A DNA stretch of 64,000 nt from Lophium mytilinum (GCA_010093605.1 MU004196.1:1386606-1450605), one strand, 5' to 3'; positions 1,396 to 51,438 are shown, counted from the first letter of the stretch. Notes: generated from the sequence alone by a model not told the origin. A program made the numbers and translations.

Positions 1396-2187
1396 AGCGT
1401 AGCGTTCTAGTGACAAGGCGTCGTACCATTCTGTAAGCAAGGGAATAAGTGTAGAGAAAGTAGGCTGGCGGAGACGATAGTGTGATTTGAAGCTTGGAAC
1501 TGCCCGCGGCATCTGGAGCCTTTAGAATGTATGATTCTCGCAATCTTTTTGTGTGCCGCCCAAGCCTATTCTTTGACTACTCGCGGCTGCATTTTGGTGG
1601 GCGACGGAGACTCTGCAGGTGCTGAATTGTGATGCCTGAGATATCTATTGTGACTCTTTGACTGACGTTGAACCCCTCATTGTGGTCGAAGAAATTTCAA
1701 CCCCAAGGAAAATGAATCAGTCCATGTTTATTTGCGGTCATTAGGCCACTACAGACGGTTGCATCGTATTCACAGAGAGATGGTTCTATTCACAGGATCT
1801 GAAGTGTTGAGACGACTCGTATCTGGAAAAGAGTGGAATTGTGGTATCATTTTTCCAACGCCCGGACCCCATCTCAATTGAAGCAAAGTCTGAACCAATA
1901 GTGACGCCTTCCTATACTTTTCGACATGCCCCCCGATGGTATCACCCTTCTCCAAAGAGGTCTATCTGCTGGTCCAGAATGAAGATCTAGCGCTGAAGCG
2001 TCTAAGCTATATACTAGCTAGCAGCCGCGAAACCGAGCCCAAGAATCTGGCTGAGAAAGCGGCCATCGGAGAGGCAGACAACGACAGGCTGGAAGAATTG
2101 GTCCAGGAGGGCCAGACGACTCCATCTACAGCGTCAGCACTTGAGTAGCACAATGGTGATCTGGAGGCGACTACTCATCCCTTACGC

Positions 2188-2784
2188 TCAATGCCTAAAC
2201 AAGCCACGGGTACGTCCAGTCGTGGAGGGCACCTCCGGTTCCGCGAGGTAGAACTCATAATGCATAGGCGTCAGTCCCGCACCTCCGAAGTCTACGACAA
2301 GCTCCGAAAGCGCTGGGAGGCACCACTCGCGGTACCGATCAACGACGGGCTGCTCCAGAGAATACGCCACCGCGTCCACGAAGCCTTGGGCAGCGCGCTG
2401 GGAAATGGGCGTTAGCTTAAGTCGAGGGCTGATGAGAGGGAAGATACGTACTTCTTGAACTACCTCGGGGCTTAGCTCAACTACCATCTCCAGCCGCTTG
2501 AGGTGGTGCAGCCGGCTGGCCTTGAAAGGCTCAAGGTAGGAGGGTGACAGGTGCTGCCAATTGTCCTCGCCAGGGCCAAGAGTGACTCGCAGCAGTAGAG
2601 TGGTTCTGTCCGCTAGAGCGCCGCTTGCGATGTAAGAACGGAGTTCGCCCAGGATGACTTGTTGGAGGGTCTTGATCCGTTTTTCGACTGACAGAAGCCA
2701 GGATTCTCGATTCATGGCCGTGGGCGGGGGCATTGAGACGGGCGAAGGAGAGGGAGTGACGTAAAGTTGGGCGGGCATCATCAT
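2188..2784 (-). CDS. Unknown-family paralogue A (~180 aa)
   Basis: Exons 2784-2452 and 2397-2188. Phase-0 intron 2451-2398 (GTACGT..GCTAAC..CAG, 54 bp, in-frame and stopless). Motifs YLEPFKASRLHHLKRLEMVV and CLPALSELVVDF resemble paralogues B-H. Start codon uncertain. Confidence 0.6.
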   Translation of the reverse strand: MMMPAQLYVTPSPSPVSMPPPTAMNRESWLLSVEKRIKTLQQVILGELRSYIASGALADRTTLLLRVTLGPGEDNWQHLSPSYLEPFKASRLHHLKRLEMVVELSPEVVQEVRIFPLISPRLKLTPISQRAAQGFVDAVAYSLEQPVVDRYREWCLPALSELVVDFGGAGLTPMHYEFYLAEPEVPSTTGRTRGLFRH

Positions 2785-3281
2785 GGTTTCGGTAGGTGGC
2801 TTCTTGAGTGGAGAATCTCGAGGTGGTGGTTGTGGTGTAGCTGGAGACTTTGGTGAGAGTTCGTCTTCCGGAGAAGACACGTTTTCTTATTCAAGTTCAT
2901 TGTGAAGTGGTCATCAATTCAGCTGTGACACAAAGAATTTTCCTGAGGTCGACATCGCATACATCTTCCACGCTTGTAGATTCACCGTCGCGAATTGAAT
3001 CCTGCAGAGCTTGGATCAGAGAAGGCCTACCTTCATGAGCCTATCATACGGTTAAGAGATCTCCAGTTCTGGTTCAGGGGGTTTTGCTTTTGACATTCTG
3101 ATGCCAAATTACTCAGTATGTTCGGGGTCGTCTCACGAGCATTAGTTGAAGCGCAAATTCATGTGTTGTAGAACCAGATATTTGACGTCATGGTTGGACA
3201 AAACTTGAGAGAGCCCCAAAGCAAAGAAAACCAGGAAGAAGCACCAGACGCTGTCCAAATCCGGCGAAGCCACCCATCATC

Positions 3282-3889
3282 TCACACTGTAGAAACTTGC
3301 AAACCTTCTCTCCGGGCAGTATACTCCTGGGCGGCGGGGCTGACAGGGAGTGAAGACACTAGTGAAACAATTAGTATATGGTAATACAATTAACGGGGGG
3401 TATTTCTTACGCTTCTGGCTACCTGGCAACTTTTCCCAGGAGCCATCGTCGAGACGCTCGTAGACGGCGCACGCGATGTCATTGCGATCGCCCACATACG
3501 CGACAAGCGTCACATTGAGGCGCCGTAAGTTGGTGCTTATCTGCTGGCAACGGGCGGCGATGTTGGCTGCTTGCGGAAGTAGATAGACAGCAGACTGGAC
3601 ATCAAAGGCCATAGTCAGTGGAGTGCGCTGCAAAGAGTAATGTGGTATGCCTTACCAGACGGTCACTCGGTCTGTATGATACACGGATGGCCACCTCATA
3701 GGTGCGCGTGCTGCCCAGTTCTGCAAGCAAAGCCAAGTAGTCGTCCGCAGTTTGAGGGTCATTGGCCATGAACCCCACGTCGATGGCATCGCATTCCTTG
3801 GCTTCAGGAGTGGCCAACAACACGGCTAGCTGCTGTTCAGACAGGGCTTGGCCGTCGGGGGTGGCAAGCAGACCTGGATAGTTCGACAT
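3282..3889 (-). CDS. Unknown-family paralogue B (~164 aa, 3 exons)
   Basis: Exons 3889-3656, 3594-3411, 3358-3282. Phase-0 intron GTAAGG..ACTGAC..CAG (61 bp) and phase-1 intron GTAAGA..ACTAAT..TAG (52 bp). Motifs LSEQQLAVLLATP, TNLRRLNVTL, YERLDDGSW. Confidence 0.75.
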
Positions 3890-4239
3890 TTCGTCTGCTG
3901 TGGGCGTGGTTGAAGAGTTGGTGGAGTTGGCTTTCGTGGGCGGAGGAGGCGAGCGAGAGTTGTTGAAGACTGGTGCAGGCAGCTTCGAAATGTGTCCACG
4001 GTAGCAGAATAACAGCAGAACGCCATTGACGTGACGCACAATGTTTCGATATGATCTGTTAGCCGCGAGTAGGCGTCTCGGGTCTTCGGAAGCCGTAACT
4101 CTTTTCGCTAGACAGTCAAACTCTCCACCGCTCTACACGAACCTCCTCTCCAGCCTCCACAGCCAATTTTCATCCCACACAACCAACCAACGTACACAAC
4201 TCCTTCAAACCCACATAACCACACTCCATCACTCTCACA

Positions 4240-4785
4240 ATGGCTACCGACCGCGAGACTTGGGCCGTCGTCGACCGCGTCGAAGCCGGAACGATCCTCG
4301 ACCGCCCCGACCTCGAGAGGTTCCTCGACAGCGTGTACGCGAAGACCATCCGCACCGTGAAAGTCGCGTTCGAGCCCCTCTTCGAGGACGATGGCACCAG
4401 CATCCTCGACATCTTTCGTCGACTGAAGAGCGTTTCTGCCCGGCGTGTGGAGGCCACAGTCCACATGTTCGAGGCCCAGGACAAGGTATGCAGTTCGAAT
4501 GTCTCGCCTGTCTACCGATGCTGACCTGTCTGTTCCTAGTTCCTGACCGTGTACCTTCCCTATAGCGCCGACTATGTCGAGGATGTCGCGAGAGAGATGG
4601 GCCCCAACCTGGCATCGTTGAGACTGACCCTGGTTAGAGAGGTCCCCGACGGGTATCGCTATGAGGCCTGGGCAGAGTATGAGCGCCGAGACGCGGGGTG
4701 GATGCAGATTAGGAATCTCGACGGCTCTCCATGGCATATGGTTGGCATGGGACCCGAGCGTGCTGCGGTAGATCTTTTGAGATAG
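4240..4785 (+). CDS. Unknown-family paralogue C (163 aa), divergent from B
   Basis: Exons 4240-4485 and 4540-4785. Phase-0 intron GTATGC..GCTGAC..TAG (54 bp). Motifs GPNLASLRLTL, YERRDAGW. Confidence 0.8.
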
Positions 4786-5748
4786 AGCGACTATGGCAAG
4801 GGTGGAGGGAAAGAAGCAGTGAAGATAGACAATGAGGCAGCACGATGTTCAGGGCGGGGTGCAGTGTGTGGAGTTGGCCCGAAGAGTGCGTGCAGCGATT
4901 GTTCCAAATACCAGATTCTCTTCTCCTTACACCACTTGAATGTGTCCTAACATGCAGCTGAAGTAGTGAACATGTATGCTCACGACCAGATGCTGTAGAT
5001 TCGCACTATTGTTGTTTTTTGTCTAATTTAGAGACACATACTCGGCGATCTGCTCACCACCCGCCTATTCTACTGTGCAAGCCGAAGGATTTGCTCGATT
5101 GTTACCGCTGTTGGAGTGCCTCCAATATGCCCAGAACCCTCCAGACAGACGCTACTGACGCCAGTCCCTGGATAAGGGGATGGGCTACTTGAATTGTGCC
5201 TTCAAAAGATTTTGCAATCATCTTACATGGCCCCTGGAATGCAGTCTTCTGCCAGATGTTTTTGCTCGCCATTAGACACCGTTAGAGTTACCCCAGCCCA
5301 TCGTCAAAATGACAAAAAATGCAGATATTCAGACATTTTGAATCAGAAGAGCTTACAGGCCCGAAGTTCTGGACTAAGATAGCCACTCGTGACCCTTCAG
5401 GACATTATCTAAATAAATGGAAGGGATGTCAAAGACCGGCGGCTGAATCTTGAGTGCTAACGCCAGCCTGGAGAAATCATGTTGGAAAACAGGGCTGTAG
5501 TCATTCGCTGGGTCAAGATTTCTATTAGAGAGGTCTTTACGCCTTCAATCTTTCTGTCTGCCTATTTCAAGTGGTCACGTTCGTGACTTCGAGAAGTGTT
5601 CATCTCGATATGTCCAGGGGTGTCACACGAGGATTTGGATACGCGCAGGAAGTCCATTTGAGTCTGATGATTTGTGAATCCCTTCTATGGCGACGATGTA
5701 TTGGAGCAAAAGAAGCAAACAATGGCTTGTGTTCCTGCAACCAACTCT

Positions 5749-6357
5749 CTAGGCGGAGCTTGTGGAGGGAAGCAATGGATCTTCCGTCGCCGTTAGTGAA
5801 GTACAGAGATGAATTGTAGAAACTACTCACGTTTGAGTGTCTTAGTATCCAGCTCCCAGGCGCCTTCCCCAATTCGCTCATAATCCGCGAAGGTGGTCTG
5901 GACAATGCCAATTTTGAAGCCCACGAGGGTTATGGTGAGTCGTCTCAGATTCGGACCTATTGTGGCGAGAAGCTGAGTCATTGGGCCCTTTGGTTCTCTG
6001 AAGGGGAGTAGGTCCAAAGTCATCTGTGTGCATCAGTCGCTGGTCTAGCATGTAGATAAGAGGTGGGTTGCGTACGATGTCCCTGTCGGCTGGGTATTCG
6101 ATTTGAATGACCAACTCCCAGATATACTTGCTATTCATGCTTTCGAAGAGACGCAAGTAGTCCCTGGCGCACGTAAGGTCGTCTATCAAAATTTTGACCT
6201 TGACGGTTTGTAAACCTTTTGCCAATGGAGTTGCCAGGTACACTGCGGCCTGCTGCTGGGTGAGAAGATTGCGATTGGATGCGGCTAGCAATACAGCTTC
6301 TACGGAGAGGGGGTCGCCTCTGGTTAAGGGAGCGGAGGGGTTCGCTGAGCTGGCCAT
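5749..6357 (-). CDS. Unknown-family paralogue D (~160-168 aa)
   Basis: Exons 6357-6076 and 6023-5831, probable exon 3 at 5780-5749. Phase-0 intron GTACGC..ACTGAT..CAG (52 bp). Probable phase-1 intron GTGAGT..ACTAAC..AAG (50 bp) at the same codon as in B. Motifs LTQQQAAVYLATP, GPNLRRLTITL, YERIGEGAW. Confidence 0.75.
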
Positions 6358-7129
6358 CGTGCTTTGAAAGTTTTGGTTTGGCTTGCAAGGGGTGAGACCT
6401 TGATGGGAGATGTGATGCTGGAAGACCAGGTTGTACCCTCTGGAAGAGAGCGAAGGCGAACATTTTGTACATACGTGCGTAACCTGATTGCTAGCAGCTT
6501 GCTAGCATCGTTGCTTGCTGTAAGTGATTGCTCTAGTCCAACGTAGTCACGGCCACGAGGTCTCATGACCGCGTAAAAGCAGCAAGTCCGCGATGATTAC
6601 CGTCAATAGGGGGGTTGCACGTAGATCCAGACTTCGAGAATCAAAGCGTAGGAACCAAACTATCGTCATAGCTACTTTGACTACGTTTTACCGCTGTTTG
6701 TGGGGTCTCAAGGCACTCTCACGAATCTGAGGTGGGGGGGCATCTGCCGGCTTGAATGCTAGGGTGTGGATCTCCAGAATACGGACACGAGCTCGGGGCC
6801 GCCGATTCGATTCAGCACCTTAAGCTCTTTACATCATAGATCCCCTGGATTTAGTAGGTTCGGAGGTGCTTAAAGGGTATAACAAGAACGCCAAAGCGCC
6901 TGCCTCAATATAGAACATGTTGCTCTTTACATTATAGGATGTTTATATGAATATGTGCGGGGGTATTTTAGAATGATGAACACCCCGCCAGATTTATGTA
7001 GAAATACAGTAAAGTTCCAAACTAAAGATATAACAACATAGACTATTACCGGACGGAGCGTTGCTCTCGAGCATTACAGCTAGGCCACAACAAAACATTG
7101 AGAAGAGGAGACTTTGTGCTATTCGGACA

Positions 7130-7350
7130 CTATAATTACAAGTACAAATACAAACAAAGTTACAAAAGCAACGCAAAAACGCCCCCAACGCCCACACAAA
7201 ACCCACAAAAGTACAAATACAGACGGAATTACAAAAGCAGAAAGGACTAACGCCCCAACGCCAGCAAAAAACCCCACAAAAGTACAAATACAAACAAAAA
7301 TACAAGAAAAGACAGAAGCTCCCCCAACACCCACGCAAACCCACAAAAAG
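7130..7350. repeat. A/C-rich tandem repeat, ~70-bp unit, ~3 copies
   Basis: AAGTACAAATAC recurs at about 7140, 7209 and 7279, with CCCCAACRCC..AAACCCACAAAA between. A related unit occurs at about 22668-22706. Confidence 0.75.
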
Positions 7351-7369
7351 ACCACACCACGCAGAGTCT

Positions 7370-7575
7370 GACGAGCAAGTCGTAACAATCCCGAGTCTAA
7401 AAGCAACAATGTTAGTATTTAAACCACCAAAACAAGCATCATTGGAGCATTTACGAGTAAATCAGCAGATCCAACCCCGTGCAGTCATGACGAGCAAGTC
7501 GTAACAACCCCAAGCCTAGAAGCAACAATGTTAATATATATAAAGCCAAAACATGTAACATTGGGGCATTTACCA
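7370..7575. repeat. Local direct duplication (~85 bp, two copies ~120 bp apart)
   Basis: GACGAGCAAGTCGTAACAA..AGCAACAATGTTA..CCAAAACA..CATTGG.GCATTTAC at about 7370 and 7488. Confidence 0.75.
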
Positions 7576-7699
7576 TTGAACCCATCGTTAGCCCTCGAGT
7601 CGGAGAATCGGATGACAAGAAAATCGGCAGATCCACTAGTGCTCACAATGTTAACATAATGCCGTCACAAATGATACAATTGCTTCATGATACGGTACC

Positions 7700-8197
7700 T
7701 CAGAGCTCCTCGTCTAAGACAGGGTAGCCGGCCTCCGGCAGGCCACCCACTGCGCACGCACGGCGGTGCATCAAGCCGCAGTGCGCGCACACCCACGCCC
7801 TCTCACCCCAGGGGTCGTCCCGGGATAAGAGCCCCATCAACTTCCATTTGGAACGAGATCGGGAGGGGAACCAGAGACGGCTCCGCCTAGCGTGGGGGTC
7901 GTCACCTCCCAGGACCTCCCCCAAGGCCTGGTGGTTGGTGACGGCCAAGGTGGCCTGCGCGGTCGGGGGGAGGTGGTCGCGGATCATCCTCCAAATCTCG
8001 GAGGGCATGCCTTCGAGGGTGGCGGCGGCGCGACCGGAAGGGGGGAGGTCGGCCTTGAGCTCGGCCATGGCGGCGCTGGCGTCGGCGGAGGCGGGAGTGG
8101 AGGAGAAGGAGCTGACGGCGGGAGCAGACGCGGAGGCAGAGGCGGCGGCAGACGCGGAGGCAGAGGCAGAGACGACGGCAGAGGGAGAGGCAGTCAT
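7700..8197 (-). CDS. Small F-box-like protein with a C-x2-C-x3-H motif (165 aa)
   Basis: LEGMPSEIWRMIRDHLPPTAQATLAVTNH fits the F-box pattern. LLSRDDPW...WVCAHCGLMH resembles the segment that follows the F-box in many fungal F-box proteins. Ala/Ser-rich N-terminus. Confidence 0.65.
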   Translation of the reverse strand: MTASPSAVVSASASASAAASASASAPAVSSFSSTPASADASAAMAELKADLPPSGRAAATLEGMPSEIWRMIRDHLPPTAQATLAVTNHQALGEVLGGDDPHARRSRLWFPSRSRSKWKLMGLLSRDDPWGERAWVCAHCGLMHRRACAVGGLPEAGYPVLDEEL

Positions 8198-8843
8198 TTT
8201 GAGTGAGTTTGGTGGTTTATTGGGTGATTAATCAGGGTCTGATGTGGCCGTTGTGCGCTGGTGTTGTCCTGATGGAGCAAGTGTCACAACATCGGTCTAA
8301 TCACTTCACGCGCACTGACCATACGTTAGACCCACACACATCTTGACCCACCAAATATTCGCTCGATAGTATCTAGATCCCGAATGACCAACATCATGTA
8401 CCACTTGCTGGACCCAGATCAGCTCTGTCCCTTTAAGCTGACCTCCAGAACGAGGCTATTTGCGAGGTCAATGACCCGGAGGATCATGCTTTAGGAAGCC
8501 ATATGTATGCGCCCGTTTGCCAACGTTTGAGGTGGATTAGCATGCTTTTAGCACCGTCAATATGGCAGGCATGTGTTCTTCTCACTAGTCTGAAGCACTT
8601 CAAACGGTGGCAGGATGGTGTCAACGAGTTCACGGCCAGGTAATGCATTCAGGAAGGGGGCAGATTGATAGCTAAAACTCGCTCCGTGTAAGCACAATCA
8701 TCTACTTGATAGCTCCATATTCGCCGGATAACTCGAATCAGTTGAGCAGTCACCTGGCTACCCAGAAGGCGCTTCCTTCCTCTAGGTTCAAGGACAAGAT
8801 CTGACTTAGAAGGCAGCAGAATGCAGTGACCGCGTTACCCCAG

Positions 8844-9486
8844 CTACTCAGGGTGAGAAAACTTCTCCGAAAGATTGTTCATGATGGCGAGTTTGGCACC
8901 GCGGGCCCGGGAGAGGTTGCGCTCGAGGAAAGACGTCGGGTTTCGTACGACAATCCACTTGTCCGAGAAAACACGGCGACGCATGGCGCGGGTTTTCGAG
9001 TCATGGTCGACGCCTTCGCCGCCGCTCATGTGAACAGTGATCTCATAGAGGCGCTTGCAACTTCTGCTCTTGATGAGTCGTTCGACGTCGTCCGGCGCGG
9101 GCAGAAGGGAGCGGAAGTGGATTCGATTGTGGCCTTGTTGGCGACGAATCTATCGCTTCTGTTAGTAGGTTGTTTCTCTGCAGGCAGGGCTGTGGACTCT
9201 AATGTACTTGCTGCTCGCCCTGCTGGTCGAGGACGTAGTGCAACTCTGCCTTACCGAGGCGGCAGCAGTGTCTGAGGGGCAGGAGGCGGGTGTAGGGGCG
9301 CGGATCGTGGTCGACGTAGACTTTGACGAACGCGGAAAGCTGCTCTCGATGGACGCCGGTGGCTCGCAAGTAACCGCTGAGGGTGCAGACTTGGACAGGC
9401 ACGTTGGTCTCAATGCAGCGTTCGATGAAGTCGAGGTTGTCCTCCGCATTGCTTGGTGGCGGGCCAGACGGGAAGGGGGCGGACAT
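8844..9486 (-). CDS. Unknown-family paralogue E (~194 aa)
   Basis: Exons 9486-9208 and 9149-8844. Phase-0 intron GTACAT..ACTAAC..TAG (58 bp). Exon 2 IRRQQGHNRIHFRSLLPAPDDVERLIKSRSCKRLYEITVHM...SDKWIVVRN aligns with paralogue F. Confidence 0.65.
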
Positions 9487-10035
9487 TGTAGAGGTATGGG
9501 CCAAGGGAAGTGACACTTGGAAGGGCAGCTAAAGAGCGGTTCGGAAACGCTTCCTGTGGGTGGGCGGCGAAGGGAGACGTCTGCGCGCAAAATCGAGAGG
9601 GCTTTCACGTGCCAAACTTGCACCAAAACGAAACTCCTAGAACATGGATTACACCACCGTAACTCTAGAGAGTACGAACTCCAAAGATTCTTCAACATCA
9701 TGCATCACCAACAAGCTGGGTTGGGTTGGAGTTCCATGTAGAATTTCAAGGTATGAGAAACCCCATAGCGCGCCCCTGCCAGCGCCATCACCTCAGCCAA
9801 AACCCCACAATAGCCAGCTGATTGAAAGCCCCATATATCTATATACCGTTTCCGATCCTAGATCTGCCGCAAAACCCGCCATCTTTGCCGAGATGTGAAA
9901 AGATCTTGAAGACAGCTCGCAGGGAGGAGGCCGGAGTCAGAACGTTGGCGAATCCCTAGAGATATAGCTATTACCCCTGGCTTTGATATCAAGCAATCCA
10001 CAACATACCTTCACCGTCAATCTGAGAAAGATCAG

Positions 10036-10656
10036 CTATCGCCTCCCAAACCTAACCTGTCGCACCGACTTCTTGACCGCCTTGACCAACCTCGCGAAGC
10101 CCTTCTTCGGCTTCAGGTACCGCACCTGGACCCACTCGCCGTCGTCCTGATGTCGACGGAACGATGCCCGAGCTGTGACCCCACGACTTTCGCGGATGAG
10201 GATGGAGAGTGTGGCTAGATTGGGCGCACACTGGCGCACCATTCCCTCGACTTCTGCAAGGGTGGGAAGGAGGTAGCGAGCCGGTTCACGCAGCAAGATC
10301 CGGTCACGGAAGGTCTAATATATGCGGTCAGTTTGATGCGTATTGAAGAAGCTCTCAAGTCGGCTCACCTTTAGATCTTTGGAGGTGTAGAGCCATAGTT
10401 TTAGGTGCTCGAGATCTCTACAGCTCAGATTGGCACCCAGATCTTCCAGGTAGTCCCTAGCGCTTAGAATGCCGTCGGCAGAGATCTTGAGCTCGATTCG
10501 GCGCAGGAACGAGATGGCCGTCGCCTTGCGGCAAAGCTGGCGAAATTCTCCTCGACTGAAGATGCACTCGGCGTTTGTGAGGATGAGGGCGGGGCCGTCG
10601 TGGGGGATGTCGTTTAGGCCTTCGATAAGGTTCAGTTCGAAGGATGCATAGGCCAT
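10036..10656 (-). CDS. Unknown-family paralogue F (188 aa)
   Basis: Exons 10656-10369 and 10314-10036. Phase-0 intron GTGAGC..ACTGAC..TAG (54 bp). Motifs ARDYLEDL, YLLPT, APNLATLSILI, FRRHQDDGEW. Confidence 0.8.
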
Positions 10657-11149
10657 GGTGTTGGGGGTGGTGTAGGATTGAGTTTGTCACGGATGAGGTT
10701 TGACAAAGTTCAATGCGAGTTGAAGTAGGCCAGACGGCGATGTTAGGGAAGGAGTGAAGTGGAAGAGTGAAGGTGGGCCTGCTTGGATCTCTATCGGAAT
10801 TCAAGGAGGACAGGGGCTAGAAACGGCTGAAGCACGTTACCCCATCCAAAATCGAATAGTTATGATACCGATTTTGTAATTAAATTGCCTTGAGGGTAAG
10901 GAAAGTCACTACTCTTGGACAGGCATACGGAGTAAAAGCTTGAGGTAATTCAATGGCTTTGGCGTGTAAGGTTCAAATTCGCGCCCTCAATCGTAAACTC
11001 ATAATATATCTCTATCTCTCCTCTTACCCTTATCTGTGGTCCCTTGAGATGCATCTACAGATTTGGTTTATAGAAAAAGTCTTCGTGCTAATTGTTGCTA
11101 GATTCTGTGTACTATATATGACTGTTTGTTTTAATATTGAAATCTAGTA

Positions 11150-12100
11150 CGAGATATCGCAATTCCAATTCGGACTCTCCAAACATAGTTTCGAAGTTCA
11201 TGTATGTATGAAGGCAGAGGACACCTCAAACACCAGGAAGTACCGAGAAAAGGATGCCAAAAAGACATGCCTATTCAGAACAGGATGTAACATAGCTCCG
11301 TTTCCGACTCCGCACACATGTCTTGACGTTGGATTTCGCGTGACGGATAGGGCACCTCAAACAGCAGGATGTAGCCGGAAAAAGAAGTGGATAGGTCATG
11401 CTGGATTAGATTTAGAGGTAGAAAGAAGGCGTATATCACTGAAAGGTCGCATGTTTCCCATTTAGACTGTCCCAAACCTGTATTCGATATCAGATTTTTG
11501 TTGGAGGGTCTGAGCCATCTCAAACAGCAGGATATACCTGGGAAAGGCAGCGATCGAACAGTGCTCTTTGGAAGGCAGTAAGAAAGAAGCGTTGTAATGC
11601 GATGAAATCACCTATTTCCAATTCGGACTCTCCCAAAAAAGTCTCACACGTCAAATCCCACCGGAGGGCTGGAGCCACTTCAAACGACAGGATAGGCTTG
11701 GAAAAGGAACCGATGAAGTCGTGCTCATTGAGAGTCATGAAAAAAACATTCTTATATCTCTACCCATATTGCTAACAGGCGACATGGCCCAAATTCAGGC
11801 TGTCCAAGGATAAGTCTCCGACCTCATGTGTCGCCTGGAGGATGAGGGCACCTTAAACAGCAGGATATAGTTGGAAAACGAAGTGCAAAGGTCATGTAAA
11901 CTGAGAACGAGGCCGAATAAAGTCTTATATGCATACCCATATTGCTTAAGAGCAATACGACTCTAATCCAAACCCTTTAACGCATGTCTTCCATGTCAAA
12001 TTCGGCCTGAGGACTGAGGGCCCCTCAAACGGCAGGATACACATCGCAAAGGAATCGGACGAGTCAAGCATATCAGGAGGTAGAGGGAGAGAAGTATAAT
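11150..12100. repeat. Degenerate tandem repeat, ~160-173-bp unit, ~6 copies
   Basis: Anchor GGGCACCTCAAACAGCAGGAT (with variants) at about 11227, 11358, 11521, 11681, 11854 and 12026. Confidence 0.7.
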
Positions 12101-12223
12101 ATCATAGCCCATTCAGGCGCCTGACTCCGGCTCTAAATCTAGTGATTCCCGCAAAGGCTTCCTAGAACAACCGCCGCCCACCGTCCAATCTACTCCCCTA
12201 CTCCGCTGCAGCGTCTACAGCAG

Positions 12224-12672
12224 TCACTGAATCACCCACTCCCTGTAGTCCGCGAGTACGAAGGTGCACATTATCGGACCGCGCGTGCCCTCCACATCCT
12301 GAACCGTGACTTGAAGCTGGCGGAGTGCGGGAAAGCTTCTGTCCTTCATCTTCTGTACGTCTCGGACCATCGGGATGAAGTGCTGGCAGTCAAACGATTA
12401 GCTACTGTTGCAAAAAGTTGTGTGCTGCTGGGCTCACTTACGCCGCTTAACGCCGAGCTCTCTGTCTTGATGTTGAGAGACGCGGTCTCGACGGACTCGT
12501 CGCGCACGAGCGCGAACTGGTCCATATAGTCGCCATACCAGACCGCATGCTTGAGGCGGAGATTGTAGAAGATGTTGGGGTGTCTGAGAGGTTTGAGTTG
12601 GGTGAGGTGCGCAGCAAGCGGGATGCGCAAGAGGACTTCGACGAAGGCCTGAGGACGGTTTGCGCTGACCAT
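12224..12672 (-). CDS. Unknown-family paralogue G (129 aa)
   Basis: Exons 12672-12442 and 12382-12224. Phase-0 intron GTAAGT..GCTAAT..CAG (59 bp). Exon 2 HFIPMVRDVQKMKDRSFPALRQLQVTVQDVEG...ADYREWVIQ*. Confidence 0.65.
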
Positions 12673-13099
12673 CGTGGCGTGATTTAGTTGACGATATGGC
12701 GGTGTTTGAGAGGTTTGGATATTGGTGCGGGTGTGGAGTCGTGAAGCTCTTAGTCGTCGAGCGTTGGCTGTGTGTTGGTTGTGAGGTGTTGGTGCAGTGA
12801 CCGAGCGTTGCTCCAACTTTATTCTCTCTTTAGGTTTAAGTGAAGCGAGAAGGCAGGGGTCGCAAGCCTCGCTGCCACCCGCTCCATCAGAGCGGCGAAG
12901 CGGAAATAGTCGGCAGGTGCCTCAGACGGCGTCATCCAGCCGGCAACTAGCGCCAATGTGCATACTTCTGATTCAGGTGCTCTGATATCGCATATAGCTG
13001 ACAGCATCAATAGGAGGAGTTGGAGTATATGTTGAGGTACTTTGCGCTGGGAGAATCCATAGCTGTAATTTGAAGAGACTGATCATCGCAACATCAATC

Positions 13100-13530
13100 G
13101 AATCTTCTTGTATGTTTAGAGCACCCCTAACGCCGGTGTCAAGCGTGGAAAGCAACAGCTTCAATACGTACAGCTTAGTATATGTCATGACCTCCAGATC
13201 AATTCCGTTATTGAGGGCACCTCTGAGGGTGACATTGAATAATGACATAGCAGGTTTGCAATCTATAGACCTAAGAACGTGACATCGACTTCAAATAAAA
13301 TCAACTGCACAGGGCACTCCTGACGGTGTTGTGAATCCACGACATACCACAGTCTCATTTCAAAGACTATGCTTTATAACATAGCTCTTGGATTGTTTTT
13401 GACGGCTGAGAGCACCTCTGACGACATCGTCAATGCAGGAAACCCCTTCGTTCAATCTGAACTGCTATGAGTAAGCCGTAGCTCCTGATTTTGCTTCGTC
13501 TACTAGGACACCTCAGACAGCGGCATGTGG
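13100..13530. repeat. Very degenerate ~97-bp periodic repeat
   Basis: RGGCACCYCTGA-like anchors at about 13119, 13213, 13311, 13409 and 13505. Confidence 0.45.
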
Positions 13531-13706
13531 CTTGCAAAAGGGAGTCTAGACTCATCTAATTAGCACTCCGCTTTCAATGGTCACATATGTCACATAGATA
13601 TTGAAGGATGTGTTGTGAAAGCCACCAAAACAGGATCTTCTCTTCTCGCCAGGCACAGGGGCCACTACCGGCAGTTCTACCTCATCTTCTCCACCCTCTA
13701 CCTCCC

Positions 13707-14343
13707 CTATTCCCGCCCAAACAACCGAGGTCTTCCCCAGAGCGTCTCATCCCGTCGCTGCTTCTTCGGCACATGCTCGAATGACTCCAACAAGCACCAA
13801 ACATCCGGGCTCTCCGGGTCTCCAGGGTCCCGCACAAACGGCTCATACTCGTAATAAGCGGTCCGTCGACCCGCGGCGTAGCTTGCATCACCGCCGACGT
13901 CTCGGACGGTGATGATGATCCTGCAGACGTTCACGCCCGCGCCGTTGGCCAGGGCGGCGATGGCTGCTGGCGCCGCGTCGGGGTTGGACTTGACCCAACG
14001 CGTCCACTACAAGAGGAGTTAGCTAGACGATTCGTGCGTTTTGGGTTGAGTTGGAGCTTACCTCCTGCCAGACGTTGCTGCTCGTGTACAGCGTGAGGTC
14101 TAGCTCATCCACCGCGGGGCTGTCGAGGGCTTCGAAGGGCGCGAGGGCGGCGGCGACGGACTCCCAATCTCGGACAGAGTAGGCGACCTTCACGGTCGTC
14201 TGGGCCTTGGTGGCCGGGGCAGCGACGAAGACGGCGAGCTGGTCGAGGGAGAGGGTGCGTTTCTCGGCGGCGAGCTGCAGGACGCGGGGCTCGGCCAGCT
14301 CGAGGAGAGGAAGGGGTGGCGGTGGTGGCAGCATGGTCGACAT
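13707..14343 (-). CDS. Unknown-family paralogue H (~193 aa)
   Basis: Exons 14343-14062 and 14006-13707. Phase-0 intron GTAAGC..GCTAAC..TAG (55 bp). Motifs LSLDQLAVFVAAPATK, TTVKV, VNVCRIIITVRD, AYYEYE. Confidence 0.75.
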
Positions 14344-15419
14344 TTTGAAGATGGGTGGAGACGGCGTGCGGAGGTTTGTGTGATGTGGTGCCTGGAGCGA
14401 GGAAGATCTGGCTGTGTGGACTTTTGAAGGAAAGGCAAGGTGCACGGTTGCCCTAGGCTTGCACCTTCACCCAGACAGAATGTTGGACGAGTGAAGCGAC
14501 TTCTATCCTTCTTATTGCCGCCATTCAGAATAGCTGGCTAGCCAGTCGGTTGGCCCCTGAAACCCAACTGATGGGACATTCTTTGGCAGTAGCGCTGGCG
14601 AACACAGCGCCTCCTGGCGGCATTGGAGCGTATATGAACATTTGGATGCTTATGCTTAATTTAATATAGCTTTTGACGGGCATTTATCACAGTAAAGAGA
14701 TCAGGCCGCCATGAATCGTGTCTAGCCAGTATATCTGCTACTCGTACTTCACACACCCGACTCATTCGCCCCTCGAACAGCTACGAGAGCGCATGCCCTA
14801 GAGCTCCACGAGAGGGCGTCGTTCAGCATTCGCAACCGTCGCCTCCTCCTGCACAAGCTCCGCTCATTGCCATTATACCCACCCGTCTCGCCGTTTTATT
14901 TCTCTTCAAGATCAAACCCATGCTTCTCATCCACCTCCGGCGATCCCCCCTGCCACAGGGACGTCTTATGCTTCTCTCGCCTTCTTCGCGCCCCGAACTC
15001 AATCCAGATATACCAGATCGCGTCCTCAATACCAGGCTCCACTCACAATCGCGCGCCACCAGTCCCGAATGGTGCTCCAAGCCCACAGGACTAGTATGGT
15101 CCGGCCGCGCCGCAATCCGCATAGACCGCGTCAACAACTTCGTCTCCCCCTCCGCCTGCGTTCAAGCCTGCGTCCCCCAATCCGTGCACACGCGCCCCTT
15201 CATCCCCGGTACCTCTCCCCCATCTCGCGGCATGTAACCCAAGACGGGTCATTCGTAAAGTTAGCCGCTCCCGGGGAGGCTGCGACGAGTAGCGATGCGA
15301 GCGCAGCGGCGGCGGAGGCTGCGCCAGGGGTTTGTCCAACTCTACCTGGGCCGGGGGGAAGTTCATCGTTCGCGGGTATGTAGTGTGAAAGTTGCGTCCG
15401 TCGAGGGTCGGCGGGTTTG

Positions 15420-15834
15420 CTAACCATATATTTGCGTCTTGCTACTCCGCGCGTCGGGGAGACGCGGGTAGGGGGTTGTTGGCAAGGGGGAGGCGACGGA
15501 GGTGTGTTTCTCGTGTGACGGTTGCGGGAGCAGAGCGCTCTCGAACTCAGCTGTATTCCCTACGGATGCGCGCTTGAAGGCGTCAATTGGATGATAGAAC
15601 GGGAGAGACAGGACCCAATCCCTGGCGGTTTCGTCAGCGTTGGCGTTGACGTTGGCGTTGGCGCTGCTGCCGCCGCTGCCATTGGCGTTGAAGTTGTGAC
15701 CTAGTCGCATTAATGCAGAGCGGTAATATTGTAGAGGCCTAGAGATATTAGATGGAGGAGATGGGAGCGGAGGAGGAGGCCGGCGGAAGCGTAGGCCGGA
15801 TTCGTTTGCTACTCGCCCGCGGTGATCAGGTTCC
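15420..15834 (-). CDS. Possible low-complexity exon of an unresolved gene
   Basis: Open frame after an acceptor-like CAG: EPDHRGRVANESGLRFRRPPPPLPSPP...NANANVNANADETARDWVLSLPF...TQIYG*. Codon-phased GCCAAC repeats. No full model resolved. Confidence 0.3.
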
Positions 15835-41914: not shown

Positions 41915-42775
41915 TCAAATATCGCAATCCCGAACATTGAACTTAAAGCCATGTGCTTCGCACTTGGTCTTAAAGGCATTCACGCTGAGCTGCAGCTCCG
42001 TGGACTGATGCGCCAGATTCCCAAAAAAGTCGACCACAATTGTCCACTGGGTAATCTTGTCAGATTTCATCACATTCAGGACGTCCTCCAGGTGATCCTC
42101 GGCCTCTTTTCTCCCCACCACCTCCTCGATGGAAAGGTTACCCTTCTCGAAGATTTTCTGGTGGAAGATCAAGGCAAGGTAGACCGTGACCCAGCGCTTC
42201 TTGCCAATCCACTTCTCCTGGGCTGAGCCCGACACAAAGGTCTCGAGATGGCGCCTAAGGAGAGACAGAACCCAGCAGGTGCCCCCACGCTCATCACGCC
42301 GTTCGGCATCCTTCTTCCAGACAATTTCGCGCTCGATGTTGACATGGGCATAATTGAGCAGGCCATTCTGCACGGTCTCATCGATATGTTCGGGCATATC
42401 GGGCAGATCGTCGCCCCATGCTTCCAAGTTGACCGCAGCCGTCCGTTCGAGGGCTGCCGACGCCTCTTGAGAAACCTGCTTGTTGACCTGAAGAAGAGCC
42501 AGGCCGGCGACTTTGTCGTCTTCATCTTCGCGGGGCCTCATAGGCTGATGATGCGACATGGGAATTGCATGCTCGTACACCATATCACGCAGCTCCTGCG
42601 GGAGCTGTAGGAATGGATGGAAGGTGATCAACGGACCTGCGTTTGCCTTGCGGGCAATCCTACCGGACATCCGAGTAGGTCGAGTCCAGGCTTTGTACTG
42701 CTTCTTTACAACCCGTCCGGAAGAGGTCTTGCTGAGGCTCGAAGCCTCCTTCATGTTGTTCTCACCGCGAGGCAT
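41915..42775 (-). CDS. F-box-like paralogue 2 (~286 aa)
   Basis: FLQLPQELRDMVY, LLQVNKQVSQE, KRWVTVYL, MKSDKITQWTIVV. Intronless. Confidence 0.8.
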   Translation of the reverse strand: MPRGENNMKEASSLSKTSSGRVVKKQYKAWTRPTRMSGRIARKANAGPLITFHPFLQLPQELRDMVYEHAIPMSHHQPMRPREDEDDKVAGLALLQVNKQVSQEASAALERTAAVNLEAWGDDLPDMPEHIDETVQNGLLNYAHVNIEREIVWKKDAERRDERGGTCWVLSLLRRHLETFVSGSAQEKWIGKKRWVTVYLALIFHQKIFEKGNLSIEEVVGRKEAEDHLEDVLNVMKSDKITQWTIVVDFFGNLAHQSTELQLSVNAFKTKCEAHGFKFNVRDCDI

Positions 42776-43921
42776 CGTAGTCTTACTGAACTTTTCGGAG
42801 ACTGTGATCGTGTTGAGCACTTCCGTTGCAGCGGTGCAGTGTTTGCGAGTTGCTTGTGGTGTTGGGGTGGGGGCAATGTTTTGATCTTTGATGATGTTGA
42901 TCGAGAGAGGGAGCACGCGGCGTATTTATGGACCTCCCATGTTAGCACCGGAGTGAATTACTGGAGGCAACGTCTGCTCACAGAGTCGACATTCTGCGCA
43001 CTCGGTGCGCAGGTCTTCCTACGCTGGTGAATCATTACAAGCCCCGGTCCGCTCATATGTTCGACATTGTCAGCCTTCAATGCGAGGGTGTACGAGTAAT
43101 GCCAGTTATGACATATGTTACCTTATCATCCAACAATACTACAACCCTGAACTCTTTACGCTTTCACCCCAGCACCTTGACAGAAGTATATGCACCCTCG
43201 CTTACCGCCGTTCGAGGTGCCTTAGCCTTCTCAAAAAGTTTCATTAAAACGCTGGCTCCTTGTGAGTTCAAATCAGAAGATTTCCACATGCTGAGCATCA
43301 GAGTACTTGCCGCCGTCTGTGGGGCCATACACACCATTAACTGTTACGAGATAAGAAACATAGCCTACACAATTTGCGTCCCAGTACTATATGTGTCTAA
43401 ACATTGCGCCGTGGCACAGCAGCTGGACATTGACCTCACAATGCTGATAAGCTGATATCTACTACTAAGAGGCTGTGGATCGCCAGCAAATTTTGCTTAC
43501 TCACACTTTCAGACATTGTCACATTACGAGATTAAGACTCTAGGAATGAGCATGTATAGAATGGACACCAAAGGCCTACGCTTCCTGGAATTCCATAATT
43601 GATAAGTCCAGGGGAGGCCCGGGAGTATAATTCTGACCCTAAAACGTTAGTCTCGATTCGAGTCCTGTAACTCCTTACGTCAAAATATTTGTGAAAAAGT
43701 AGGTCCAGGGGCATCCAGAGAAGCAATTCGTTCTCGAAGCCCTAGTCTCAGATTAGAGCCCGTAGCTCATGGCATGTAAGAAATCCGAAAAGAATGAGTG
43801 CAGGGGCATCCCAAGAGCCCAGCTTCACCTCAAAATCACATTGCTTTACGGCAGATTCATGCCCTCGAGATGTTACAGCACGTGCTGCCGTGCTCTACAC
43901 CTACATTCATGCTTCCCCCCT

Positions 43922-44743
43922 CTAGATCACACATGCATACGGCGCCACGACGTACCCAAATCCGTCCTTCTCGCATCCTTCCTTGATCCACCTCACCAGA
44001 GAGCTTGGCACGATGCCAGGAGCCGGCACCTTGAGGATCCACCGGATGGTGGTGTTGGTTTCCATCATGAGCTGGAAGCACCGCTTCCATCCCGCGACAG
44101 CCTTCCAATTCACCCGCACAAAACCCCCCCGTCCGAACATATACTCCAGTTTGTACCAATGCCACGTACAGAAGTCCAGCGTCACCTCACGCTCAAGGGC
44201 GTTGTAGGTGGTAGTAGAAACGGCAACAATACTACCAAGCGTCTCCTCTACTGGCGTTATGCTGTCCATCCAACTGAATATTGATTCCGGACAAAGAACG
44301 GAAATCTCAATCTTTCTGAAATTCTCGATAGCCTCTTTCGTCATAGCCAGCTGTCCCCTATTAGGCCGTGCTACATCGTCCCTTTCGACGCAAACGGGGA
44401 GCCGGCACGTCGCTCTTCGTGCCAGCATAGCTGCGGTTTCGTCGTGGATTTGACGGTTGACAGCCAGGAGGGCAAACCGCTCAGGCTGCTTGGAATTGAC
44501 TAGTTCGTGCGCGGTGGCAGGGGTGAAGGTCGCGTTGGGTTCGAGTACCAGTTCGTAGACGGCGTTGCGAAGTTCTCCCGGGAGCTCGAGGAACTTCGTG
44601 AATGATTCGGTTGGGTTTCGTGTGCGGAGTCGCTCGGCGGCTGCGGCTTTGCGTGCTTTGTTTGCTCGTTTTGCTTTGCGGGCTTTCGCGGCGCGGGCCA
44701 TTCCGATTTTTCTATCGCGCTTACGCTTTGTCTGGGACGGCAT
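43922..44743 (-). CDS. F-box-like paralogue 3 (~273 aa) with a basic N-terminus
   Basis: FLELPGELRNAVY, LLAVNRQIHDE, METNTTIRWILKV. The KRKRDRK..KARKAKR segment is NLS-like. Confidence 0.8.
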   Translation of the reverse strand: MPSQTKRKRDRKIGMARAAKARKAKRANKARKAAAAERLRTRNPTESFTKFLELPGELRNAVYELVLEPNATFTPATAHELVNSKQPERFALLAVNRQIHDETAAMLARRATCRLPVCVERDDVARPNRGQLAMTKEAIENFRKIEISVLCPESIFSWMDSITPVEETLGSIVAVSTTTYNALEREVTLDFCTWHWYKLEYMFGRGGFVRVNWKAVAGWKRCFQLMMETNTTIRWILKVPAPGIVPSSLVRWIKEGCEKDGFGYVVAPYACVI

Positions 44744-45185
44744 CTTTGGGGTGGAGGAAGAGCAAAGCTGCGGAAAGATCTTGTAATTGATGCAAGAAGC
44801 GCGTTGGATGATGGCACGACTTATGGGTAGTGGTGGAGGTATGGGGGGAGGCTTAGGCAGAGTGCAGGTAAACGGTAGCTTCATTGGATCTGTAGCTTTA
44901 TTCGTAGAACAGTAGGTATGTGCTAGGAGTGAAAGGTCGTGTGAATGCGCATCTCGCACTACTGAATGGTGAATTAGTGACTCCCGAAGTGCCTTCGGTT
45001 CGAAGAAAGGACGGTATCTTGGAAGTTCTTAACTTCCTGCGTTATTCGATGTCAGGCAAGTTCCGAAAAGTACATGCTTGAGAAGATCTCTGGACTTTAG
45101 ACAAGGTCGTCTTCCAATTCGGGCTGTTTGTCGTCTATGGTGGCTCCTTACGCCGTCAAGGTATATGCACCGAGGACATCGTCCT

Positions 45186-45769
45186 CAGGGCTCGGAATCA
45201 ACCGATCGATCGATCAGGCCTCTCAATATCAATCGAATCGACTGCTTAATCAGCAGAGGCCCAGATCAATCAAATCAATCGAATCAATTGATTCATCATC
45301 GAAGAATCGACATGGTTAAAGGTATTTAAAGGCTTAGCGCAGCGCGTAGGTAGTATCAAGGTATTTACTTAGAAATAATATTTTTTTAGTTAATATCTAA
45401 ATCCCTATAAGAGGCTCCTTTAAACTCTTTCTAATTATTAGTAGTAGTTAATAATAATGCGGCGGTATAGTACTACTCTATTAGAAAGACACGTAATAGG
45501 AGAGGCACCTCTATAGTCACGTAAGGCAGAGTCACGTGATATAGTACTTACATAATATTATATCCCGGCGAAGCACGGCCAATAAACCGCGTCTTAAGCA
45601 GCTAAAGTGCTATTATATTTACACCTTCAACCATGTTGCTTTCAATTGATTAGGCCTCCTGAAATCAATCAATTGAACCTTTTCCAGACGGCTGATCAAT
45701 TAATCGAATTGCCAAGACTTCGATTGATTTCGATCAACCGTTCGATTGGTTAATTGATTCCGAGCCCTG
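45186..45769. mobile_element. Non-autonomous hAT-type element (MITE), 584 bp
   Basis: Perfect 16-bp TIRs CAGGGCTCGGAATCAA / TTGATTCCGAGCCCTG. Perfect 8-bp TSD ATCGTCCT at 45178-45185 and 45770-45777. Subterminal ATCGA/AATCAATC repeats. No transposase ORF. Confidence 0.92.
45315..45631. mobile_element. Nested 317-bp inverted-repeat-bounded insert, RIP-like (TpA-rich)
   Basis: Left end GTTAAAGGTAT, right end reverse complement GTTGAAGGTGT. CATG on both flanks (45311-45314 and 45632-45635). Composition shifts sharply to AT/TpA-rich. Confidence 0.6.
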
Positions 45770-46242
45770 ATCGTCCTCCATGAGTCGATCGAAGGCATTC
45801 GCATTTACGTCTGTTTGTGGTTTGGCCATAGTTTCGTGCGTCACGTGGGGTCCGTAACCATGGGTTGAGCGTTCGAGGCGTGGTTGATCCTCGGTTAGAA
45901 GTGGTCGTTTGGTCGAGGTAACGTAAACAATAGCCGTATCGCGATAAGATGAGTGGAAAGAGGAAGTAGTGAAATTTTCGGTGTAGAAAATATTTCTGGT
46001 GCGTCATTGGAAAAGAGCGTACGAAAGGAGGAAAGAAGTTTCAGCCTGTAGGCATAATATCATGGTCTAGGCAGTGAGATTAGAAGTCTGTATAGGACCG
46101 AGATAAAAGCTGGGCATACCTTGCAACTGCTTGCGGTACACCGATAGGCTTCAAAACACAACAAGAAATGTAAGGGCTGACGCAGGAGAGATTATTTGAC
46201 CTAACAAATACTTGCTAGCTAGGGAGCTCCTTACACTGGTGT

Positions 46243-48003
46243 CTAACGAGCAGCCGGAGCAAGCCTGGAGCCGGAGCAGTATACCGGTGTGCCCTCGAAC
46301 GGCGCCACCAACTCCTCCAACCTCTTCTCCAACCCCTCTTCCCCCTTCTCATACGTGAAGACCGTCTTCGGAGGCCCCTGATTATTGATACACTCATTCC
46401 ACCGTACATCCTCATCCCAACCCCACCGCATCTCCTCCGACTCCCCCTTATACGGGACATCACCCGCCGTACTTATCAACGTCACCTGCACCCCGTACCC
46501 ATCCGCCAGCCGCATGAACGCGACAATATCCACCCCCCACTTCTCCAGCACCGCGATCTTACCTTCGAGCTTCAGCCTCGTTAGACCGGGAAAACAACGC
46601 GCTTTCATCACCAGAACCTCTTCAAGCGCGGTGAAAAGGTGCCGCGTCACGAACCCCGTGATCTGCTCCCCATAGCCCAGCGCCCCAAGATCCCGTACAT
46701 GCGTAATCCACAGCTCCTCCAGCGCGGGCGGCAGCGCGCGCCACAGCTTTGCGCGGTAGTCCGTGACTGCGGCACCCTGCGTCCCCTCCGGCGGCGGCGA
46801 GAACAGCCCATCATGGCCCCACACGAACACGGGCGCGAACTTGAGCTGCCGGAGCGCGGTAAAGTGCGTGAATTGCAGCGCACACGGCGTCTCCTCGTCG
46901 TGGTCTTGCGTGTCCTGGTACGGGTAGTAGTCCTCGTGGGAGAGGGCGAGCGCGGTCAGGTGCGGCGCGTGCGGGCCAAGCGCAGCGAGGATCTTCTCGT
47001 GTTGGACGGGAGTCCAGGCCCAGGAGCAGCCGATCTCGTACATGAAAGTTTTCAGGGAGCCGGGGGTGGCGATGCGGAGGACACGAAGGAGGTCGGGGGA
47101 GTAGATCTTGCTGGCGCGCACCTCGATGAATTCGACAGGTGACGATTCGGGCGGGATGGCGGCGAGGATGTCGTGAACGGCGTCTTGGCCTTCTACTCCG
47201 ACGCGGTAGGTGTAGAGATGGCGTAGCGCCGGGAGGGCGAGGGCGCCGAAGAAAAAATCGGGTTGGTTGGGATACTTGTCGTCTTCGCCGGCCATGAAAA
47301 CGTCGGTGAGGGATGCGAAGGGGGTGGGGCAGTTGGGATGGTCGCTGCCTGGTGACGTGTGTAATCGATTCTTGTGTAGGCTGAGGCGCTGGAATATACG
47401 GAGCATGTAGCTGTTTGGGTCAGAGTAATCTGGGCTTAGGTCTAATTTACGGAGTTTGGGAAGCCCGGCCAGGAGTAATGCTAGCACGGCGCCTTCGTCA
47501 CGTCCATTCTTGACGTCCTCGAACCAAGCGGTGGCTTCCTCGTCGTCCTTTGCATACTCGGCGACCCTGGCTCTGATAATGCTGTGGAGATCACCATGCT
47601 CCGGCCAATTGATTCTGTGGTCTTTATATTCAGGTTTGTCACGGTCGAGGAAGGGTGCAGGAGCAGCGGCCTTCTCATCCCAAGAGCCTCGAATGGAGAA
47701 TGACCGGACCAGGGCTGCGTGAGAGGGAGATTGCCACATGTGGAGAGTGAGCGGGAGAAGATGTCTCAGCCCTACTCCGAATTCGATGTATTCAAGGAAG
47801 ATATCGGAGTAGAGGTGCGGCGTTGCAATCCTACTGATCTTTTTGTTGGTCAAGCAAAGTGCGGCTAGGCCTGAAAACTTAGGGGACTCTGGCTTCGGGC
47901 TCCTTGGTTCGTAGCGGAGCCATGGTTCTGGACGCAGAGGGACGAATTGGACTATGCGGTCGATAAGCTCCTCAGATAGAGAGCCATCGAGGGAGAAGGG
48001 CAT
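46243..48003 (-). CDS. F-box protein with LRR-like C-terminal region (586 aa)
   Basis: LSEELIDRIVQFV..LAALCLTNKKISRIATPHLYSDI, then LPKLRKLDL, LPALRHL, HLTALAL, FTALRQLKF and LPPALEELWI repeats. Confidence 0.85.
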   Translation of the reverse strand: MPFSLDGSLSEELIDRIVQFVPLRPEPWLRYEPRSPKPESPKFSGLAALCLTNKKISRIATPHLYSDIFLEYIEFGVGLRHLLPLTLHMWQSPSHAALVRSFSIRGSWDEKAAAPAPFLDRDKPEYKDHRINWPEHGDLHSIIRARVAEYAKDDEEATAWFEDVKNGRDEGAVLALLLAGLPKLRKLDLSPDYSDPNSYMLRIFQRLSLHKNRLHTSPGSDHPNCPTPFASLTDVFMAGEDDKYPNQPDFFFGALALPALRHLYTYRVGVEGQDAVHDILAAIPPESSPVEFIEVRASKIYSPDLLRVLRIATPGSLKTFMYEIGCSWAWTPVQHEKILAALGPHAPHLTALALSHEDYYPYQDTQDHDEETPCALQFTHFTALRQLKFAPVFVWGHDGLFSPPPEGTQGAAVTDYRAKLWRALPPALEELWITHVRDLGALGYGEQITGFVTRHLFTALEEVLVMKARCFPGLTRLKLEGKIAVLEKWGVDIVAFMRLADGYGVQVTLISTAGDVPYKGESEEMRWGWDEDVRWNECINNQGPPKTVFTYEKGEEGLEKRLEELVAPFEGTPVYCSGSRLAPAAR

Positions 48004-51204: not shown

Positions 51205-51438
51205 GAGGTGGAGGCGCCGAGGGTGCGGTATGCGGAAACCAGGCTACCTTTTGATCGAGGGACTACCTGCTAACTGAGGTTCCCCTGACAGTGGCATGTG
51301 GCTTCCAAAGGAGCGATCAAGTGTTCGTATATTGCTACATCGTCTACAAGCGTACTTGTGTCCTAGCACTATGACACAATTATTCAAATCCAATGGATCA
51401 CGTGGCGAATGAATGATGCTCCAACTAGGTGTGCGTGA

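Follow-up and report, generated by a model that had tools for sequence, protein, structure and literature searches.

The window analysed here is a 64,000-nucleotide (nt) stretch of DNA (GCA_010093605.1 MU004196.1:1386606-1450605) from Lophium mytilinum. By scanning for GT..AG introns with a CTRAY branch, translating the spliced products and tabulating the introns, we recovered eight small spliced genes, named A to H, at positions 2188..14343, with seven on the minus strand and only C on the plus strand. We favour, at somewhat better than even confidence, the reading that these genes form a lineage-restricted, tandemly duplicated family of non-enzymatic binding modules whose fold resembles that of leucine-rich-repeat (LRR) domains. 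The genes, their predicted introns and the F-box-like gene that lies among them are listed below, with protein lengths in amino acids (aa) and positions counted from the first letter of the window.

2188..2784, minus strand: gene A, probable, very diverged member, 180 aa if spliced; intron 1 at 2398..2451 (54 nt, phase 0, after codon 111; GTACGT..GCTAAC..CAG).
3282..3889, minus strand: gene B, core member, 164 aa, three exons; intron 1 at 3595..3655 (61 nt, phase 0, after codon 78) and intron 2 at 3359..3410 (52 nt, phase 1, 8 codons after the conserved Trp).
4240..4785, plus strand: gene C, core member, 163 aa; intron 1 at 4486..4539 (54 nt, phase 0, after codon 82).
5749..6357, minus strand: gene D, core member, 168 aa, three exons; intron 1 at 6024..6075 (52 nt, phase 0, after codon 94) and intron 2 at 5781..5830 (50 nt, phase 1, 8 codons after Trp150).
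7700..8197, minus strand: F-box-like gene, between D and H and outside the family, 165 aa with an Ala/Ser-rich N-terminus.
8844..9486, minus strand: gene H, probable diverged member, 194 aa; intron 1 at 9150..9207 (58 nt, phase 0, after codon 93; GTACAT donor).
10036..10656, minus strand: gene E, core member and the best conserved, 188 aa; intron 1 at 10315..10368 (54 nt, phase 0, after codon 96).
12224..12672, minus strand: gene F, probable member without the N-terminal helical part, 129 aa; intron 1 at 12383..12441 (59 nt, phase 0, after codon 77).
13707..14343, minus strand: gene G, core member, 193 aa; intron 1 at 14007..14061 (55 nt, phase 0, after codon 94).

Each of the eight genes carries a predicted GT..AG intron 1 of 52-61 nt, in phase 0 and after codon 77-111, with a branch-point A located 9-20 nt from the 3' splice site. 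On the family profile this phase-0 intron falls at position ~95, after the second long strand and before the helix with the 'LLP' motif, in all eight genes, A and F having it at the same place as the core genes; in H, 14 residues separate it from the 'LLP' that follows, a spacing identical to that in the neighbouring gene E. An alternative 55-nt donor for intron 1 of F was rejected, as it breaks the reading frame, and intron 1 of H, with its GTACAT donor, was located with the help of the annotated protein. Together with the second, phase-1 intron of B and D, the predicted family introns number ten and all measure 50-61 nt. Splicing of the second intron of D is supported by conservation of the peptide encoded by its exon 3 in a D-like protein of Mytilinidion, P0006. 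Intron 1 of A is in frame and stop-free, so that the open reading frame (ORF) reads through it, and it is left unspliced in the annotated model P0005. These results bear out several claims of an earlier note on this DNA: the gene models contain the 52-61-nt phase-0 intron that it had placed after codon ~77-111 of all eight genes, the intron table contains the phase-1 intron that it had seen in B and D 8 codons after the Trp, and the exon 1 and exon 2 motifs that it quoted are all present in the spliced translations. The ORF track does split or misread every member, as had been stated, with seven genes split and the intron of A read through.

The codon-position composition of the models is coding-like. 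In all eight genes the GC content at third codon positions (GC3, 0.61-0.80) exceeds that at second positions (GC2, 0.36-0.50), as it does in known genes of the window; F, the shortest model, has a GC3 of 0.77. The start ATG is the first in-frame one after a stop, with a purine at -3, in all eight genes and in the F-box-like gene. A crude hydropathy scan detected no signal-peptide-like or membrane segments in the eight proteins, in agreement with the earlier suggestion that obvious signal peptides are missing. Profile searches of the six-frame pieces of the window yielded no family copies beyond the eight, the best other piece being an ORF at 46246-48192 that reached an E-value of 0.037 in one leave-one-out run only.

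We compared these models with public annotation, in which part of the array is already present as hypothetical proteins. For C, D and G, our models are identical in every residue to P0004, P0002 and P0003, respectively. Two further annotated proteins are fusions: P0005 (398 aa) has an N-terminal part identical to B and a C-terminal half that corresponds to unspliced A, and P0007 (387 aa) combines E with H, the latter as its C-terminal half. Gene F was not among the annotated proteins in either of the searches able to find it. Public models agree with six of the eight first introns and with both second introns. The family is consequently not invisible without splicing, as had been supposed: the annotation of C, D and G is correct, two fused models contain B, E, H and A, and F alone is missing.

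Taken at face value, the annotation implies six genes rather than eight, with B+A and E+H each encoding a single two-domain protein, a reading that we consider rather unlikely. Within each pair the genes follow one another head to tail on one strand, with about 500 nt between them, and the annotated proteins of 398 and 387 aa join them; the E-like protein of Mytilinidion, P0008, is also long (399 aa), and its C-terminal part weakly re-matches the family profile (two stretches; E 0.004). However, joining B to A requires a 247-nt intron (3041-3287), a 10-nt micro-exon and a 145-nt intron (2886-3030), and joining E to H requires a 44-nt intron and a 13-nt micro-exon (both within 10009-10065) followed by a 493-nt intron (9516-10008). 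Introns of 247, 145 and 493 nt stand against the 50-61 nt of all ten family introns. The exon that would open the A half begins 2 nt after an in-frame stop upstream of the ATG of A; moreover, the start ATGs of A and H are each the first in frame and have a purine at -3, B and E have stops of their own, and the fused E+H model has no confident joint fold (predicted template-modelling score, pTM, 0.41). We regard P0005 and P0007 as likely merged gene models and keep eight genes in what follows.

To examine relatedness within the array, pairwise blastp comparisons were made in a tiny database, and they linked B to D (5e-21), D to G (8e-6), C to D (2e-5), C to E (1e-4) and B to C (1e-4); in the same tiny database nothing convincing was found for A or F. 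Identity between paralogues is 22-35% over the aligned stretches. Leave-one-out profiles were then built, and each was searched against 1615 sequences, namely the spliced protein and 1614 six-frame pieces of the window. The omitted gene was recovered at E 9e-13 for B, 1.6e-5 for C, 9e-15 for D, 1.7e-4 for E and 4.1e-8 for G, and at 0.011 for F, with no match under E 1 for A. At the level of sequence comparison, the homology of B, C, D, E and G is beyond doubt.

To look for relatives elsewhere, we searched 1.84 billion representative proteins with a profile (A4) made from D, G and C together with exon pieces of B and E. The search returned 25 matches at E<=0.001, comprising five Lophium models, 16 other proteins and the following four proteins of Mytilinidion resinicola.

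P0006: 165 aa, E 1e-24, D-like.
P0008: 399 aa, E 4.5e-17, E-like.
P0009: 161 aa, E 2e-10.
P0018: 240 aa, E 8.7e-5.

The accessions of these four proteins are near-consecutive (KAF2809836, -37, -39 and -41), which points to a matching array in this sister genus. The 16 other matches, which are multi-stretch and nearly all confined to the hairpin motif, were not counted as full-length relatives. Two of the 16, P0010 and P0013, were inspected and are long repeat proteins with many 'AYV(F/Y)ER..DG(S/T)W' units; their likeness to the family's 'YER..G.W' seems to reflect convergent evolution of a beta-hairpin motif rather than homology. Word-indexed protein searches returned only the window's own proteins (D; G, C and D; and the F-box-like protein). 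Full-length relatives have so far been found only in Lophium and Mytilinidion, the two sequenced Mytilinidiaceae genera.

The five core genes and the four Mytilinidion proteins were combined into a nine-sequence core profile, against which A, F and H could be assessed. The earlier note had taken all eight genes as related paralogues and had proposed mutual profile similarity as a check; the claim stands for B, C, D, E and G (E 9e-15 to 1.7e-4), whereas A (1.6), F (0.011) and H (0.15) are not significant by sequence, their E-values here being those of the core hidden Markov model (HMM). Exon 2 of H alone gives an E-value of 0.045. Within the six-frame window, F, H exon 2, H and A are nonetheless the best non-core matches of the core HMM, and they align at colinear profile positions. 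Comparison by hhalign with the family profile gave P-values of 0.0016 for F, 0.0032 for H and 0.0071 for A. For 12 other ORFs of the window, which included four ordinary genes as well as F-box-like, LRR_15-like and 2EXR ones, P was 0.09-0.81, placing A, F and H 13 to 57 times below the lowest of these 12. When residues were shuffled, the real score was reached in 0 of 2000 trials for A, 1 of 2000 for F and 0 of 2000 for H.

These data bear on the possibility that the family has only five true members, with A, F and H as unrelated orphans or decaying relics that carry a short intron by chance. That the HMMER E-values of these three genes fall short is in its favour, as are the lack of any blastp match at E<=1 to the annotated Mytilinidion members and a mutual blastp among A, F and H of E 0.22 or worse; in addition, F is missing from the annotation and has no N-terminal part, and the domain model of H is of low confidence. 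Against it, the three genes rank among the best non-core matches of the 1614 six-frame pieces, their hhalign P-values are low relative to controls, at most one of 2000 shuffles reaches each score, and their codon-position GC is coding-like. Each also carries an intron of the same phase at the same profile position, and H shares with E the 14-residue spacing from intron to 'LLP'. We judge the five-member version unlikely, and A, F and H each to be quite probably members of the family.

The comparison with Mytilinidion indicates how old the array is. E is 63% identical to residues 1-180 of P0008 and D has a 47%-identical Mytilinidion counterpart, with all other cross-species pairs at <=30%. In a tree of the family, species labels interleave, strong support is seen for the E pair only, and end branches reach 1.5-2.9 changes per site. 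The counterparts of E and D and the interleaved labels imply that the array predates the Lophium/Mytilinidion split, as expected from the old expansion proposed earlier; the end branches and the paralogue identities likewise agree with the high divergence and fast evolution noted then. Evolution is very fast in most of the copies, E being the one that is held back.

Consistent with a compact domain, AlphaFold2 run on D with the nine-sequence alignment gave a model with a predicted local distance difference test (pLDDT) score of 82.9 and a pTM of 0.77. The model runs from a helix and a short strand through two helices to strand 51-57, helix 64-74, strand 81-89, a short helix and a further one at 108-116, and ends with three strands at 122-131, 134-144 and 150-152. 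The E domain (residues 30-160), predicted within the fused E+H protein, shares the topology of D, with a pLDDT of 57-93 per 10-residue block. On these models of D and E, a compact alpha/beta fold, as suggested earlier, is predicted with confidence. Only M1 and W150 are invariant in the nine sequences. That a single Trp is invariant after the start Met, with no catalytic-type residue conserved, argues against an enzyme, and the proteins are on this basis taken as non-enzymatic protein-binding modules.

Pfam offered no credible match for 14 exon pieces, three full proteins (P0002, P0003 and P0004) or two F-box sub-pieces, in keeping with the description of the family as unrecognised. Rows for FR47, AfAlkA TBP-like, YopE_N and Peptidase_A6 (E 0.005-0.23) were all far below their cut-offs and were set aside. 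Searching the PDB by sequence gave nothing better than E 0.18, and no paper on the family was found by title or abstract start among those listed under the species name, or by locus tag or accession.

Structural comparison suggests what the domain may resemble. In LRR domains the helices lie on one face and the sheet on the other, and the family model appears to have a similarly one-sided layout. Most of the structural neighbours listed for the E model, and some of those for D, are short capped LRR domains or the LRR domains of F-box substrate receptors, among them D3/MAX2, COI1, TIR1, FBXL5, the C-terminal half of tropomodulin, U2A', LANP, the Mex67 LRR and SDS22. In the ESM Atlas, the best structural row is a fungal F-box protein cluster, with a template-modelling (TM) score of 0.62 by query, and by features the ascomycete F-box/LRR_15 clusters reach 0.82-0.83, below the lead threshold. 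The family's strand motif, 'L..L.I.L' after 'PNL', resembles the cysteine-containing LRR subtype of FBXL proteins, and only one 'PNL..L.I.L' unit has the look of an LRR consensus. Similarity to F-box-associated LRR-like domains, which the earlier note had singled out for testing, thus has weak but repeated structural support from the ESM Atlas and the neighbour lists, and we infer from the models that the fold is LRR-like. A test of one half of the domain against the other by hhalign did not support an internal duplication.

A different comparison comes from Foldseek, whose one match in the PDB at E<=0.001 was to the acetyl-CoA carboxylase of yeast, in its central domain (TM 0.35). The domain might accordingly be a two-layer alpha/beta unit of the kind found in the non-catalytic AC4-AC5 region of eukaryotic acetyl-CoA carboxylase, not LRR-like at all, and serve as a scaffold or regulatory module. 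The four AC4-AC5 structures concerned (5csa, 5cs4, 5i6e and 5i6f) show no sequence similarity to the family (5-15% identity) and a low TM of 0.35-0.41. Their setting differs, as they lie inside a 2000-residue enzyme, and the family proteins neither match the ACC_central profile nor lie within an ACC polypeptide. We judge this reading of the fold to be improbable.

The 7700-8197 gene is a real 165-aa ORF with a public protein of equal length. Its earlier description as a small F-box gene inside the cluster holds as regards the ORF and its ESM features, which score 0.94, with 176 shared, to small ascomycete clusters with 25-42% PF00646 members, but it gave no Pfam F-box match even at E 10. Against the family profile it had an hhalign P of 0.6. 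The eight family proteins have no F-box match in Pfam, and their N-termini align with one another and not with F-box models. Pfam LRR_15 (PF24969), which forms the C-terminal domain of many fungal F-box proteins, gave no hmmscan match at E<=10 for P0002, P0003 or P0004.

In the right half of the window we observed a run of lineage-expanded fungal genes spanning 41918-59945.

41918-42925: 2EXR gene, above the Pfam cut-off.
43925-45028: weak 2EXR gene (E 0.0012).
46246-48192: LRR_15-like long gene with an F-box-like start (E 0.007).
51442-52344: 2EXR gene, above the Pfam cut-off.
54492-55400: fainter 2EXR gene (E 0.1-0.3).
55734-57272: fainter 2EXR gene (E 0.1-0.3).
58473-59945: F-box-like gene (E 0.003).

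Lineage-expanded fungal arrays of F-box-like, LRR_15 and 2EXR genes are tandem, extremely diverged and kept in the sister genus, and the family behaves likewise in the same window. The family genes differ in being far smaller, in having no F-box-like or 2EXR head and in showing no profile similarity to these genes: comparison of the family profile with the F-box-like, LRR_15-like and 2EXR genes of the window by hhalign gave P 0.09-0.73, against 0.16-0.81 for controls, the LRR_15-like ORF at 46246-48192 scoring 0.091, within the control range.

Several further features lie between the genes. B (minus) and C (plus) are divergent, with about 350 nt between their start codons (3890-4239), and may share a two-way promoter. 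The gap between E and F is filled by six diverged head-to-tail units of ~165 nt at 11120-12090 (spacing 131-173 nt, mean column identity 64%, GC 0.43), which start about 150 nt downstream of the stop of F; a single extra copy at 13410-13580 lies about 150 nt downstream of the stop of G. These units were missed by Tandem Repeats Finder and have no match to the family HMMs. Just downstream of the F-box-like gene is a tandem repeat of three 69-nt units (7140-7348), accompanied by two direct 93-nt copies at 7369-7461 and 7488-7580 that are 82% alike, all in strongly strand-skewed sequence. A run with the same species label and of guessed kind, X1, shared next to no sequence words with this DNA and gave only four pieces, drawn from three short contigs, and no joints on 1500-15500; the pieces are of 23-46 letters, and all fall at 7459-7619 in low-complexity repeat.

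Together, our results suggest a model in which an ancestral gene already carrying the phase-0 intron would have undergone several in-place duplications before the split between Lophium and Mytilinidion. These copies would then have diverged under weak or diversifying constraint, leaving as remnants a few hydrophobic strand motifs, the 'PNL..L.I.L' strand and the C-terminal 'YER..G.W' hairpin. Each of these nuclear genes is predicted to encode a cytosolic domain of ~130-150 residues, in which a helical N-terminal region precedes three strand-helix units and a beta-hairpin closes the domain. Its one-sided arrangement of sheet and helices would be closest to that of short, capped leucine-rich-repeat domains. 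The array would in this case provide a set of variants with different binding surfaces, possibly tied to the many fast-evolving F-box-type genes of the Lophium genome.

A number of points weigh against this model. All introns are predictions from sequence, the core-HMM E-values of A, F and H do not reach standard significance, and the H half of the fused model has a pLDDT of <50. With regard to the LRR-like fold, no Pfam LRR model was found on the exon pieces (E<=1) or the full proteins (E<=10), the inter-strand repeat lengths of ~20, 30 and 41 residues with strands of 7-10 residues are irregular for an LRR, the half-versus-half hhalign comparison was weak as a test for internal repeats (P 0.014, probability 3%), and hhalign connected the family with neither the LRR_15-like nor the F-box-like ORFs in the window. 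The protein-binding function, finally, is purely a matter of what we infer. It is highly improbable that the genes derive, as 'headless' remnants, from the LRR part of an F-box/LRR receptor, for which the F-box-only neighbour would supply the head of a split, combinatorial SCF (Skp1-cullin-F-box) receptor, or that they are decoys, small proteins that would compete with full-length F-box/LRR receptors for targets; were the split receptor real, one F-box adaptor paired with many diversifying modules would be a new route to recognition diversity in fungi.

Fungal genomes hold many such orphan arrays, and the present one has no bearing on a long-standing open question. At a practical level, the conserved intron can guide re-annotation of the Lophium locus and of the Mytilinidion one, where the corrections for Lophium would comprise two merged gene pairs, one likely unspliced intron and one missed gene. 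If our favoured reading of the array as a tandemly duplicated family of LRR-like binding modules is right, it would add a new small protein family that lacks a Pfam model and is confined to a single family of wood-inhabiting Dothideomycetes, and would illustrate how tandem duplication followed by very fast divergence may erase sequence similarity while intron position and fold survive.

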